A program made the translations under genes and the position numbers. A stretch of 64,000 nucleotides of DNA from Infirmifilum sp. GTDB taxonomy: Archaea > Thermoproteota > Thermoprotei > Thermofilales > Thermofilaceae. The notes beneath the pieces are model-generated. The model saw only the letters and a program-made list of their open reading frames with translations. It searched no databases and had not been told where the DNA came from. Of this stretch, positions 14,010-61,743 are shown piece by piece (within the stretch, counting starts at the first letter, position 1; the number at the start of each line of letters is the position of its first letter). The stretch lies in NCBI GenBank assembly GCA_041287245.1, contig JBEULP010000003.1, positions 1 through 64,000 of the forward strand, read 5' to 3'.

Positions 14010-14177
14010 GATTAAAAGGCTCCTTGGAGGTGCATATCATCACGAAGTCAGCCCAGGTCAATCTAGTCATTGCCAGTAGGTATTCGCGCGTTGAATATTA
14101 ACCTTTACCGTTGCGCGCGGGTTCTGGGCTATGCGCGCGAAAATAATATATTGGTTTGAGTGTTATCTGGCGCTTAG

Positions 14178-16413: not shown

Positions 16414-16466
16414 ATGACGACTTTGCCGAGTCCTGAGTAATCGATGATGAGGCATTCATGCTCTGA
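16414..16466 (+). ncRNA. Box C/D guide sRNA
   Basis: ATGACGA-ctttgccgagtc-CTGA-gtaatcg-ATGATGA-ggcattcatgct-CTGA; TTTATA about 25 nt upstream. Confidence 0.9.
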
Positions 16467-16557
16467 CCTAGTTTTTAGAAACATGAAAAGGTAACCTCGA
16501 GAGGAGACGAGCTCGCCAGGGCTCGTAAAAAACTAGGCAAAACATAGGGAAAGCACT

Positions 16558-48189: not shown

Positions 48190-48494
48190 GGCGCGGTGGG
48201 CCACCGGGCGGGCGCCGGCCAGCCACGGCGACGGGCTGGCTGTGGAACCCCCTCCCCTCCGCGGTCCGTGGCTGCGTAAGCAGCTCGGCGAAAAGCCGAG
48301 GGGGAGCGAAGGCCCCCAGGGTGGATGAGTATGACCTCCGGTAAAGGAGAGAAGACGCTCTGGGTATGCGTGAAATGCCCTCCCCACGGGGTTAGGGTCA
48401 AACAGGCCCTGTGAGGCACCGCGGTGAGGGCCGGGTAGACCCTTAGACGGATCCCGCCTAAACAGAAGAGGGGGTACGAGTGGCCCACCGCGCC
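48190..48494 (+). ncRNA. rnpB: RNase P RNA, type A-like but divergent
   Basis: P1 GGCGCGGTGGGCCAC/GTGGCCCACCGCGCC, P2 GGGCGGG/CCCGCCT, CR-V AAACAGAA, P4 ACCCCCTC/GAGGGGGT, P15 GGGTC/GACCC preceded by GGTA, CR-IV AG-N4-AT. Confidence 0.9.
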
Positions 48495-50634: not shown

Positions 50635-50709
50635 CGATGTGTTTATAACCACTCCAGCTTTATTATTTTGACAAACCGAGAAGCCGGGGTGGCCGAGCGG
50701 ACCAAGGCG
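50635..50709 (+). repeat. 75-bp exact direct repeat, copy 1 (promoter plus 5' end of tRNA-Ser)
   Basis: Identical to 53050-53124. Confidence 0.95.
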
Positions 50710-50785
50710 GCGGACTCGAGATCTCGTCTACGTGAAATCCGTTGCCCGCGAGGGCGCCCGGGTTCAAATCCCGGCCCCGGCGCCA
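50683..50785 (+). tRNA. tRNA-Ser(CGA) with 16-nt intron (50721-50736), CCA encoded
   Basis: GCGGA-CT-CGA-G|intron|A-TCCGT, long variable arm, G73. Confidence 0.94.
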
Positions 50786-53049: not shown

Positions 53050-53124
53050 CGATGTGTTTATAACCACTCCAGCTTTATTATTTTGACAAACCGAGAAGCC
53101 GGGGTGGCCGAGCGGACCAAGGCG
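53050..53124 (+). repeat. 75-bp exact direct repeat, copy 2
   Basis: Identical to 50635-50709. Confidence 0.95.
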
Positions 53125-53198
53125 ATGGCCTGGAGAAGCCGCTACAGGAAGCCATTGCCCGTCAGGGCGCCCGGGTTCAAATCCCGGCCCCGGCGCCA
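53098..53198 (+). tRNA. tRNA-Ser(GGA) with 14-nt intron (53136-53149), CCA encoded
   Basis: ATGGC-CT-GGA-G|intron|A-GCCAT, long variable arm, G73. Confidence 0.94.
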
Positions 53199-58624: not shown

Positions 58625-58714
58625 CGGGCCCGCCGGGACTTGAACCCGGGACCTACGGCTATCCCCGTGCGGTTCTCCGAAGGCCGCCGCGCCTCCTGAC
58701 TGCGCCACGGGCCC
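58625..58714 (-). tRNA. tRNA-Arg(TCG) with 16-nt intron (58661-58676)
   Basis: GCGGC-CT-TCG-G|intron|A-GCCGT; acceptor GGGCCCG/CGGGCCC-G. Confidence 0.94.
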
Positions 58715-58719
58715 TTTGA

Positions 58720-58778
58720 GGCGTCTCTTCACCTCCTTGTCATCACCTTTTCAGTTGTCAACGCTTCAGTCATCCGCC
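58720..58778 (-). ncRNA. Candidate box C/D-type sRNA directly 5' of tRNA-Arg
   Basis: Minus strand GGCG-G-ATGACTG-aagcgttgacaa-CTGA-aaag-GTGATGA-caaggaggtgaa-GAGA-CGCC; two 12-nt guides, 4-bp terminal stem. Confidence 0.68.
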
Positions 58779-58827
58779 TATATTCTATGCATCAATATTG
58801 TTGAATAAAAAATTGCTGTATGTGTAA

Positions 58828-61743
58828 CTACTTTACAATTATGGCGGGCCTTGCGGGTAATGCTTGTCGAGCTTTAGAGGTGTCGGAAGCCTCATCCTCG
58901 TGGAGCATGATTATCTTCTTTTGTGTCACTTGCTCGAAGAATTCTCGCGCGTCGAATAATGCTCTTTCCTCTAGATCCGGGTTGACTAGGAGGTCTAGGA
59001 TCTCGCTGTTCTTGACTATGATTTCTATGAGACTCCCAGCTTGCTTTTGACTCTCGGTTGGCAGCTGTCTAAGGGCCTCGCGTATAGCTTGCTGGAGTTT
59101 CCCGTGAGTTTTTAGGTTGCTTTTTATTCTTTCCAGGAAGTCATACTTCCATCTACTGGGTAGCACTATGACGAGTTCATTTATCTTCTCGCTTCCCACC
59201 ACCTTGAGTAGCTCCTGAATGTCCTCTAAGACCTTTTGCACTATCTTCTCAGCCCTCTCGGCCTCTTCGTTTATTTTACTACTGTCCGCGACCGGCCAAT
59301 TTTCAAACTGGATTAGGGTCTTCTTACCGAGCCTCTCCCATATTTCTTCGGCAATGTGAGGCGTAATGGGGGCCAGGATTAAGGTTTGAACTTCTATGAA
59401 CCTCTGGAGAAGTGTTTTATTTGGAACGCCGCGCCTCTTCAAGTACCATTTAAAGGAGTTTTGAAGGTGGAAGAATCCTTCTGTAATCACGTTTTTCATG
59501 TTGAGCTTCTCATACTCTTCTTCGATAATTTTCAGTGTACGGTTTAAAACACTTTCAAACCAGTCGTCTATGAACTTCCTCTGCACATCGCCCTTGCCGT
59601 AGTTCTCAACCGCGAAGCTATACCATTCGTAGAGAATATTGACCGCGTTAGACGCAAACTCAGGCTCAAAGTTACCGTCGTCTAGGCCTGTATTACCGGC
59701 GTACGCGTTGGTAAACCTTGTAACATCCGCTCCCCAGTAGTCTAGCGCCTCCCTTAACAGTATGAAGTTGCCCTTCGATTTCGACATCTTTTCTCCGGCA
59801 ACGTTGATCCAGCCGTTTATTGCAATGCCCCTGGGCCAATGCTCAGGTGGGAAGATAGCGACGTGGTGCATTATGAAAAACACTAGGTGGTTCGGAATAA
59901 GGTCCTTGCCTGAGACGCGTAGGTCAACAGGATACCAGTAGAGGAACTCTGCGCGTATTTTCTTCAAAAGCTCCGGGTCTATGCCGAGCTTCTCAGCAAC
60001 AGCGTTTAAGTCCCCCCTCCCGAGGAACACATAGTCATAGAAAGAGCGGTCTATACGGTCCCAATTTATCCCATAAGCCTCAGGGTGCTGGAGATACTTC
60101 GAAATAGTGTAGTAAGCCATGTAAATGGTTGAGTCGCTTAGTGACTCTAGAACCCACTTCTCATCCCAGGGCAAAGGAGTCCCAAGCTCCCGCTCATGCG
60201 TACAGGCCCAATCTTCGTACCAATCGACCAGCCTGTGGAACTCGCTCTTTAGCTCTGGTGGGAGAAATAGCATCGCCTCTATACATTTATGCGCCTTAGC
60301 CTTCCACTCTGGGTCACTGTAGCGTAAAAACCACTGATCCTCGACGATTTTTACATGTGTACGCGTCCCACACCGACAGTAGACTGGCCTGGGGAGTGTG
60401 TAGTGACGCAGAGCATAGCCGCTCCTAACAAGAAACTCTATAACCTGCTCCTTAACCTCAAAAACCCTCTTCCCGCCCCACTCCTCGCCATACACCTCTT
60501 TTCGGAGAACCCCATTATAGAACTCTTTCGAGTAAATCTCCTTAGTAGCCTCCTCTAGTTTTTCTTTCTCGCCCTGGAATACTATCCCATGTTTCCTAAC
60601 TATAGTCTCCGCGGGATATTCACCGTAGCCTTCGAGCACTATTAAGCTGACCGGCTTAACCGCATCAATTATTGTCGGGTCTACCCCATACTTGTCTAGA
60701 AGGTTGGGATCCCTCCTTAGATCCTCCAAGGCAACCCAGTCGTAGGGGGCATGAGCCGGTACCGACATTACAACCCCAGTCCCCGCCTCAGCATCCACAA
60801 ACGTTGCTGGGAGAACAGGTATCCTCGCCTTAGTGACAGGATTCTCTACAAACCTACCTACAAGCTCGCGCCCCCTTATCCTTCCGAGCACGCTAACCCT
60901 ATGCCCCTGATCGGCCAGTTCTGAAGCTCCATAACTGCCTAAGACAAACCTCTCGCCGTCAACGTTAACAACCAGATACTCCGAATCGGGGTTAACCCAA
61001 ATGTTCACCGCGCCGTAAACCGTCTCAGGCCTGTAGGTGAGGCATGGATATGTAAGCCCATCCTCCCCCTTGAACTTGATAATTACAACTTTCTCTGGAC
61101 CTATACCTGCATACTCATCCGGCCTGTCATGGTCGCCCACAACTTTATGCTCCTTTGGACACCATACCACCGGGTGGGATCCCCTGGTTACATAGCCGTT
61201 TTCACGCAAGACGCTATACTGCCACTGGATGAACTTGTTATACGGAGGGTTAAGATACGTGGTGAAAAACTCTCTCCTCCAGTCCACTGAGAGGCCATAC
61301 CTTGTGAAGTCCTCTCTAAACCCCTTGGAGAAGAACCGGACCCAGTACTCCGGGTCCCTAAACCTGGGAATCTCGTCATCACTAATCCCCATGGACTTCA
61401 AAATACCAATCTGCTTAGGATCCCCCTCCCTAACCCTCAGCGCTGCCGCCACAATCGGTCCTCCTGTAGCATGCCAGCCCTGCGCAAAGAGCACATTGTA
61501 GCCCTTCATCCTCTTGTAGCGTGCAACTATGTCTACACGAAGAACAGTATACGCCGTGCCAAGGTGGGGGTAAGAATTGATATACGGGTAAGGGAAAGTG
61601 ATGAAGAACTTTGGCTTCGAGTCGTCAGGCTCTGCCTCAAAAACCTTGAGGTCGGACCATCTTTTTTGCCACTTAGCCTCAATACTCTTCAGAAAATCCC
61701 TCCTTTCAACGTTGACCGGTGGGAATTGTAGCCTTCTAGCAAT
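58828..61743 (-). CDS. leuS: Leucyl-tRNA synthetase; start lies upstream of the tracked ORF at a non-canonical codon (ATT 61743 or CTG 61692)
   Basis: Frame stays open for 78 codons above Met 61509 and encodes IEAKWQKRW and FFITFPYPYINSYPHLGT (HIGH region); downstream CP1 GTGVVMSVPAHAPYD, ESLSDSTIY, KMSKS. Confidence 0.95.
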   Translation of the reverse strand: MARRLQFPPVNVERRDFLKSIEAKWQKRWSDLKVFEAEPDDSKPKFFITFPYPYINSYPHLGTAYTVLRVDIVARYKRMKGYNVLFAQGWHATGGPIVAAALRVREGDPKQIGILKSMGISDDEIPRFRDPEYWVRFFSKGFREDFTRYGLSVDWRREFFTTYLNPPYNKFIQWQYSVLRENGYVTRGSHPVVWCPKEHKVVGDHDRPDEYAGIGPEKVVIIKFKGEDGLTYPCLTYRPETVYGAVNIWVNPDSEYLVVNVDGERFVLGSYGASELADQGHRVSVLGRIRGRELVGRFVENPVTKARIPVLPATFVDAEAGTGVVMSVPAHAPYDWVALEDLRRDPNLLDKYGVDPTIIDAVKPVSLIVLEGYGEYPAETIVRKHGIVFQGEKEKLEEATKEIYSKEFYNGVLRKEVYGEEWGGKRVFEVKEQVIEFLVRSGYALRHYTLPRPVYCRCGTRTHVKIVEDQWFLRYSDPEWKAKAHKCIEAMLFLPPELKSEFHRLVDWYEDWACTHERELGTPLPWDEKWVLESLSDSTIYMAYYTISKYLQHPEAYGINWDRIDRSFYDYVFLGRGDLNAVAEKLGIDPELLKKIRAEFLYWYPVDLRVSGKDLIPNHLVFFIMHHVAIFPPEHWPRGIAINGWINVAGEKMSKSKGNFILLREALDYWGADVTRFTNAYAGNTGLDDGNFEPEFASNAVNILYEWYSFAVENYGKGDVQRKFIDDWFESVLNRTLKIIEEEYEKLNMKNVITEGFFHLQNSFKWYLKRRGVPNKTLLQRFIEVQTLILAPITPHIAEEIWERLGKKTLIQFENWPVADSSKINEEAERAEKIVQKVLEDIQELLKVVGSEKINELVIVLPSRWKYDFLERIKSNLKTHGKLQQAIREALRQLPTESQKQAGSLIEIIVKNSEILDLLVNPDLEERALFDAREFFEQVTQKKIIMLHEDEASDTSKARQALPARPAIIVK

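Follow-up and report, generated by a model that had tools for sequence, protein, structure and literature searches.

A box C/D sRNA gene in the probable leader of tRNA-Arg(UCG) of an Infirmifilum genome and its predicted targets in 16S rRNA

The 59-nt unit (58720–58778) upstream of tRNA-Arg(UCG) on the minus strand of the window, i.e., the whole 64,000-nt stretch of Infirmifilum sp. DNA analyzed here, is almost certainly a real box C/D sRNA gene. Taken as a whole, the likely explanation is that this sRNA methylates C1535 of 16S rRNA through a 3' (D) guide complementary to the anti-Shine-Dalgarno (anti-SD) tail and, probably, C967 through its 5' (D') guide. An archaeal box C/D guide aimed at the anti-SD is an already described type and no new system; the C1535 register, the coupling to helix 31 and the position as a tRNA 5' leader were not found in open full texts. 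For a lineage for which no rRNA modification map was found, Cm1535 and Cm967 are exact predictions. Cm1535 would lie inside the mRNA-pairing CCUCC core, one base past the measured anti-SD marks at 1533 and 1534, and Cm967 would fall on a P-site base that Thermococcales modify on the base by protein enzymes. The core of the first-pass annotation, namely a C/D sRNA with an anti-SD guide at C1535 and a promoter shared with the tRNA, is supported by sequence analysis.

Architecture and conservation of the sRNA gene

The boxes follow each other in the order C, D', C', D around two 12-nt guides (Table 1), which is the arrangement of an archaeal box C/D methylation-guide sRNA, with 4 nt between box D' and box C'. 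Kink-turn geometry is present, i.e., a stem, a 3-nt bulge followed by GA, and GA opposite. The TATA box, GGCG/CGCC stem, 3-nt bulge, GA/GA, CTGA, GTGATGA and two 12-nt guides described in the first-pass annotation were all found in place on the minus strand. The outer boxes, which it had called degenerate, are ATGACTG and GAGA and depart from the consensus (RUGAUGA and CUGA) at three of seven positions in box C and two of four in box D. The C5-D2 position is a C-A mismatch in the source genome, and activity at the degenerate box D could be low. Across the syntenic copies described below, the GA/GA of the outer boxes is retained in 9–10 of 10, and the flanking C/D positions are paired in 70% of cells.

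Table 1. Features of the sRNA and tRNA-Arg region, in positions of the window.
Feature	Position	Strand	Evidence or remark
Box C/D sRNA gene, 59 nt	58720..58778	-	Kept in genus (8/8) and in 2/3 genomes of genus g4; stem covariation
Terminal stem, 5' strand GGCG	58775..58778	-	Partner CGCC at 58720-58723; 5/6 stem pairs with two-sided changes, 10 copies
Degenerate box C, ATGACTG	58767..58773	-	Kink-turn GA is its GA; ATG invariant, following A in 9/10 copies
D' guide AAGCGTTGACAA, 12 nt	58755..58766	-	8 bp to 16S helix-31 loop; N+5 = C934 of own 16S
Box D' CTGA, canonical	58751..58754	-	Sequence and 10-row alignment
Box C' GTGATGA, canonical	58740..58746	-	Sequence and 10-row alignment
D guide CAAGGAGGTGAA, 12 nt	58728..58739	-	10 bp to 16S 3' tail 1532-1541; N+5 = C1535
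Degenerate box D, GAGA	58724..58727	-	CTGA/CCGA at the same place in 19/29 family members
5-nt spacer, predicted tRNA 5' leader remnant	58715..58719	-	Sequence
tRNA-Arg(UCG), 16-nt intron	58625..58714	-	No TATA-like box 18-50 nt upstream
TATA-like box TTTTTATT	58804..58811	-	25 nt before 59-nt unit; predicted sRNA-tRNA promoter
Leucyl-tRNA synthetase gene leuS	58828..61509	-	Class I synthetase with leucyl editing domain; upstream neighbor, synteny marker

ARAGORN called 58625–58714 as Arg(UCG) when introns were allowed and miscalled it as Pro when they were not; the unit ends 5 nt before this tRNA, as had been annotated. A genome scan for the four boxes gave 32 candidates, compared with 5 and 14 in two shuffles. 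Both guides matched rRNA in 8 of the 32, the tRNA-Arg-leader sRNA included, and in 0 and 0 of the shuffled candidates; this filter was set after the element was known, and it calibrates the scan without being an independent test. No Rfam gathering score was reached at the sRNA, the best scores being those of sR1 (13.5 of 45 bits), sR52 (14 of 50) and snoPyro_CD (11.5 of 45), and the sub-threshold overlaps at its coordinates were with archaeal C/D families. The isolated 59-nt RNA folded no better than shuffled sequences (z -1.34). Genes for L7Ae, Nop5 and fibrillarin are encoded in the genome, and an archaeal RNase P RNA lies within the window (48196–48488). The assembly, in which the window is contig C49, also has archaeal 16S and SRP RNAs, and its many tRNA genes with several introns fit a Thermofilum-like member of the Thermofilales.

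The same scan gave further four-box candidates with both guides directed to 16S/23S rRNA, located at 14010–14070 (minus strand) and 16414–16470 (plus strand) of the window and at C29:31904, 177452, 211171 and C64:1563. The outer boxes of the candidate at 14010–14070 (C49:14070) are as degenerate as those of the tRNA-Arg-leader sRNA.

The unit was found in all eight genomes of the genus, including the source genome, each time directly after leuS. It is also carried downstream of leuS by two of three genomes of genus g4 (G016 and G019), giving 10 syntenic copies in total; these genomes are related, so that their agreement does not equal 10 independent events. BLAST retrieved the unit in five of the seven same-genus relatives and in one genome of another family, and a pattern search retrieved the remaining two. 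In the 10-row alignment GCGTTGA, AAGGAGGTG and the box nucleotides are invariant and the spacers are variable. The stem and C/D pairs covary, with two-sided changes in 19 cells. The covariation value of 0.581, from rows that are kin and with the structure taken from the source-genome copy, compares with 0.176 in shuffles and was attained by none of 500 shuffles and by no slid control (the best gave 0.319). Conservation had been named in the first-pass annotation as a test, and boxes, stem and guide are indeed kept in relatives.

Beyond these copies, a C'-guide-D pattern (at most one mismatch) was found in 27 of 41 genomes of the order (reversed control, 4 of 41) and in 9 of 79 other genomes of the class. 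The resulting family has 29 members in 29 of the 41 genomes, picked by eye from the pattern matches listed after matches lacking the four boxes were dropped; one contributing search had 129 further matches beyond those listed, and the membership is at least 29. Box D is CTGA or CCGA in 19 of the 29 members, and thus the odd outer boxes are a feature of the source genus. Elsewhere in the class, in a different family, four genomes (G074–G077) have the anti-SD guide with an unchanged register, in what was read as the 5' position. A strict C1535 pattern gave five matches in a 401-genome sample of the phylum, all within the source class, which is a lower bound, as this pattern fails on the source genome itself. 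In a pattern scan across GTDB, the 10 matches all fell in bacterial-titled records and were taken as chance; close relatives may be outside the searched set. What the family shares is its anti-SD guide; the D' guide varies from genus to genus and, outside the 10 syntenic copies, frequently lacks a clear target. With one guide fixed and the other swapped, the 29 genomes form a natural set for examining whether binding of the anti-SD by C/D sRNPs has any importance beyond the methyl group.

Pairing of the two guides with 16S rRNA

The D guide forms 10 Watson-Crick pairs with the 16S tail of its own genome (duplex of -17.1 kcal/mol at 37 °C), and equal pairing to 16S, 23S or 40 pre-tRNAs was reached by 7 of 300 shuffled guides. 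Its N+5 position is the counterpart of E. coli C1535, as the first-pass annotation had proposed; the tail numbering was checked against the available text of PMC5389701 (U1528–U1532, A1534–C1535). Of 27 parsed members, 26 have the register C1535 and the remaining one, G004, has A1534; 28 members were given to the parser, G038 was left unparsed and G012 was not among them, and scoring used the own 16S for 11 members and the source-genome 16S as stand-in for 16. In G002 and G003 a guide A has become G, turning one pair into G-U, and the G012 guide has a mismatch opposite C1533. One compensatory event is seen in G025, where CCUCCUA of the 16S is matched by UAGGAGG of the anti-SD guide. That the anti-SD is the target of the D guide can be held with great confidence. 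Since the register is fixed, methylation is favored over masking alone, and Cm1535 is likely to be made. The anti-SD reading was thus supported, but it is less surprising than it had seemed in the first-pass annotation, such guides and anti-SD ribose methylation being already published.

If AAGGAGGTGA were the plain Shine-Dalgarno (SD) sequence of a present or lost mRNA, the boxes would be chance or a by-product. As a sequence it is a perfect SD by definition, the genome contains 83 copies of GGAGGTGA, C/D sRNAs are reported to overlap gene starts frequently (PMC7994747, available text), and in 3 of 29 members a start codon 11–12 nt downstream opens a frame of 90–99 codons. However, the other 26 members have no start codon 3–15 nt downstream that opens at least 60 codons, a tRNA occupies this place in the source genome, and the four boxes, the covarying stem and the second conserved guide are unaccounted for by an SD. 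Among the 23 AAGGAGGTGR sites of the genome, one has a C'-like box before and NNGA after it at the same spacing. It had also been annotated that no real ORF follows, and the one frame there, of 72 codons, has its GTG start in the guide, extends across the tRNA and gave no match in Pfam. With downstream frames absent in 26 of 29 members, the SD-of-mRNA reading is largely refuted and hardly credible.

Bases on either side of the anti-SD, in the trailer and just before it, are complementary and can close a hairpin with the anti-SD in its loop (L001:2985–3015). This hairpin is the lowest-energy fold in 4 of 16 pre-16S ends (source genome, G006, G007 and G016), and 7 of the 16 genomes have the sequence potential for it. 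Such a loop would let the guide nucleate in pre-16S, and the hairpin is not general.

A second C/D-like sRNA of the source genome (G000:C94:21020–21085, plus strand, L195) has an anti-SD guide at the 5' position, with register C1533 and 12 bp including one G-U. It was found in at least six of the eight genus genomes and in G016, and it resembles the D guide of Pfu sR26 and the mark at C1533 (Cm1533) known from measurement in I. hospitalis. Anti-SD guides also occur in C/D frames at L082, L083, L084, L085 and L092 (G025, G027, G034, G009 and G032, respectively); these are longer 3' guides ending GATC(T/G), probably with other registers near 1531–1533.

The match of the 5' guide to the helix-31 loop of 16S rRNA had been missed by the first-pass annotation. 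In all 10 syntenic copies, this loop is the best rRNA site of the D' guide, with 8–10 bp (8 bp in the source genome) and the same C throughout. This C is C934 of the source 16S, which we take to be the equivalent of E. coli C967. The target site is invariant in all inspected 16S genes, and each change within the guide core retains or gains a pair with helix 31 in the 10 copies. Guide position 11 forms an A-C mismatch with helix 31 in 7 of the 10. The 8-bp length, weak by itself, is attained by 6–30% of shuffled guides in roughly parsed tests; the D' columns of the 27-member parse are only rough, with the D' box misplaced in many rows, and 16 members were redone. For the D' guide, no competing site was found in 23S, the 23S used aligning end to end with that of a closed relative.

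In six other genomes, D' guides with an ACCCCT or ATCCCT core were observed (L069–L072, L063 and L064, from G020, G022, G021, G015, G024 and G037, respectively). They have several equally good rRNA sites and no single common target.

The best match of the D' guide in the source genome is located elsewhere, with 11 bp (one G-U) at the intron-exon junction of pre-tRNA-Lys(UUU), on which the D' guide of a real sRNA might act in place of helix 31. Of 300 shuffled guides, 2 reached this match, and the guide A that is mismatched on 16S is paired here. However, the duplex requires a C at its middle that, among 20 tRNA-Lys matches listed from 13 genomes, occurs in the source gene alone, and N+5 of the duplex falls on an intron base, while the helix-31 site is unchanged across the inspected 16S genes. 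Pre-tRNA-Lys(UUU), with the top score in the source genome but not conserved, was rejected as D' target, and action there is very improbable. For helix 31, the sequence comparison tips the balance slightly towards the D' guide directing 2'-O-methylation at C967 in the P-site loop (Cm967). The modified U adjoining the target C is presumably position 966. In other archaea, the U beside the target C carries m1-Psi or m1acp3-Psi (PMC7005279, PMC11698992), and protein-made base methylations at C967 are described for Thermococcales in the available text as m5C939 (PMC7005279) and m4,2C918 (PMC11551388).

Promoter and link to tRNA-Arg

A purine-rich BRE-like stretch precedes the TATA-like box, and the G005 copy has the same TATA-like element upstream. 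The upstream regions of the 40 tRNA genes of the source genome were rated by an ad hoc, crude AT-box score, by which 32 of 40 score 9–10 and 38 of 40 score at least 7. The region upstream of the sRNA scores 9 at 23 nt. tRNA-Arg(UCG), which had been annotated as having no TATA of its own, scores 6, the second lowest of the 40, and the 18–50 nt upstream of it are the body of the sRNA. In G001 and G004, where tRNA-Arg(UCG) is unlinked, a TATA-like box is present before it (scores 9 and 8, respectively); among the six linked genomes, this scoring covers the source genome alone. A TATA box missing in the linked source tRNA and present in two unlinked genomes fits the proposed promoter shared with tRNA-Arg, and the sRNA and tRNA-Arg probably share one transcript. 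In the predicted fold of this precursor, the sRNA stem and the tRNA acceptor stem are separate. A sigma-70 promoter/terminator scan, a model unsuited to archaea, gave one hit on the opposite strand.

In 6 of the 8 genomes of the genus, tRNA-Arg starts 6–13 nt beyond box D, with the anticodon UCG in five and CCG in G003 (loops read by eye), and none of the 21 other family members abuts a tRNA. The link is local and thus not required for sRNA function. The 16S tree groups G001 with G004 (90/97), which is compatible with one loss or two gains of the link. In family f2 (four genomes), about 45 nt that include an AT-rich stretch separate the sRNA from the tRNA-Trp downstream, and the two probably have separate promoters. 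In T. pendens, all 44 non-permuted tRNA genes are reported to have promoters 30–49 nt upstream (PMC3218864, available text), and thus the sRNA-tRNA link is not general in that genus.

The sRNA and the tRNA might also be mere neighbors, the tRNA being transcribed from a cryptic promoter inside the sRNA or both being cut from a leuS read-through transcript, in which case no sRNA end would be made by RNase P. The link is missing in two of eight genus genomes, the TATA score is crude, and sRNA ends can come from trimming around a protein-protected core (PMC7994747, available text). However, the score of the region before the tRNA, the ordinary TATA 25 nt upstream of the sRNA and the own TATA of the unlinked tRNA-Arg orthologues make this quite unlikely.

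Apart from tRNA-Arg(UCG), tRNA-Asp(GUC) (G000:C60:9237–9348 and about 90 nt upstream, minus strand, L196) is the sole tRNA gene that lacks a TATA-like box in the 50 nt before it. Its leader contains a long hairpin (9-bp base, internal loops), preceded by an AT box about 85 nt upstream, and is possibly a second small RNA in a tRNA leader. The 46 nt upstream, TATA box included, are identical for the tRNA genes at 50683–50785 and 53098–53198 of the window, which suggests a recent duplication.

Mode of action and comparison with known sRNAs

Transcription would begin about 25 nt after the TATA box and proceed through the sRNA and tRNA-Arg (about 155 nt), and an RNase P cut at tRNA +1 would release the sRNA with a short 3' tail. 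With the sRNA first and a tRNA TATA box only where the two are unlinked, this would be RNase P making an sRNA 3' end. L7Ae/Nop5 on the kink-turn and K-loop would protect the released sRNA, and the sRNP would bind pre-16S, in which the tail is unpaired or exposed in a loop. Fibrillarin would then 2'-O-methylate C1535, the first C of the CCUCC core, by the N+5 rule, and Cm1535 would stiffen and protect the mRNA-pairing strand at high temperature. Cm967 adjoining the modified U966 would be the least certain step.

The sRNP might instead mainly hold the anti-SD tail of pre-30S, and in the genus also the helix-31 loop, with methylation secondary or absent; in this way it would keep immature subunits off mRNA or time the trimming of the 3' end. 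Consistent with holding, the anti-SD guide is fixed family-wide while the D' guide varies by genus, another sRNA directed to this tail is retained in the genus (C1533; G000:C94), guide pairing extends to 1541–1542, at or beyond the usual mature end, and the outer boxes are degenerate in the source genus. A similar role has been proposed for sR13 (PMC5389701, available text). However, neither the N+5 register in 26 of 27 parsed members nor CTGA/CCGA as box D in 19 of 29 is needed for pure masking, and the genome encodes an RsmA/Dim1 homologue, so that the Nanoarchaeum rationale for a substitute checkpoint is not applicable. A 2021 review reports that no archaeal sRNP with a modification-independent action is known (PMC8339473, available text). 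Holding as the main function is therefore unlikely. We give little credence to the wider proposal of an order-wide sRNP guarding the pre-30S anti-SD, with C1533 and C1535 sRNAs on the tail, one of which, in the source genus, clamps it to the P-site helix-31 loop and is cut by RNase P from a tRNA leader. If true, the mRNA-docking and initiator-tRNA sites would be freed together only after methylation, as an RNA-based licensing of initiation.

Guided methylation, the preferred reading, has precedents in the literature. The N+5 rule and double guides to distant sites have been described (PMC4644070). Anti-SD ribose methylation has been measured as Am1534 in N. equitans, via sR13, and as Cm1533 in I. 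hospitalis; the former was confirmed by mass spectrometry and RiboMeth-seq, and sR13 is abundant (PMC5389701). In open full texts, no mention of Cm1535, of Cm967, of a helix-31 guide combined with an anti-SD guide or of an sRNA from the source lineage was found, subscription papers, the target calls of PMC4644070 and the modification table of PMC11698992 being outside that search. The text of the Pyrobaculum sRNA supplement has 0 occurrences of either guide motif, and an sRNA sharing its promoter as a tRNA 5' leader was not found in print in open full texts.

Dicistrons of tRNA and sRNA are reported for N. equitans (tRNA-Val/sRNA8 and tRNA-Gly/sRNA3), I. hospitalis (tRNA-Ser), T. tenax (tRNA-Pro) and Pyrobaculum (tRNA-Met/sR44) (PMC3491384, PMC7994747, PMC6009581). 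They are alike in that the sRNA lies a few bases from the tRNA, a single promoter is used, as is predicted here, and the link is gained or lost within a genus. In the published accounts available, however, the tRNA comes first and the 5' end of the sRNA is made by tRNA 3' processing (RNase Z), whereas here the sRNA comes first. N. equitans sRNA14 precedes tRNA-Gly, but at a distance of about 33 nt and with an AT-rich box between them (PMC3491384, available text).

The helix-31 guide has a counterpart in Ignicoccus hospitalis sR81/sR82, where a 12-nt guide before CCGA is one base off the helix-31 guide of G016/G019 (PMC4644070). By eye it has the same register, but, in the part of the source available, no coupled anti-SD guide; the I. 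hospitalis sRNA with this near-identical guide is expressed (PMC4644070).

For the anti-SD guide, Nanoarchaeum equitans sR13 (sequence in supplement file 1 of PMC4644070) is alike in having four boxes and a 3' (D) guide that pairs with 16S 1531–1540. As far as the available text describes it, sR13 marks A1534, in contrast to the C1535 predicted here, and its other guide is directed to A1408 in helix 44 rather than to helix 31. It has canonical boxes, its own promoter and no terminal stem, whereas the element described here has degenerate outer boxes and a stem, and RsmA/Dim1 is missing in N. equitans, in contrast to the homologue in the source genome. Pyrococcus furiosus sR26 is alike in having GGAGGUGAU within its D guide, which in vitro directs methylation of a substrate with GAUCACCUCC; the available text does not give the 16S tail as its target (PMC4836650, PMC7089733). 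It differs in its D' guide and in its register, for which our own N+5 count gives C1533, and its closer counterpart in the source genome is the second sRNA, on contig C94. Thus, the element would work like sR13 and sR26 but is not classed as the same gene, having another target nucleotide and another partner guide.
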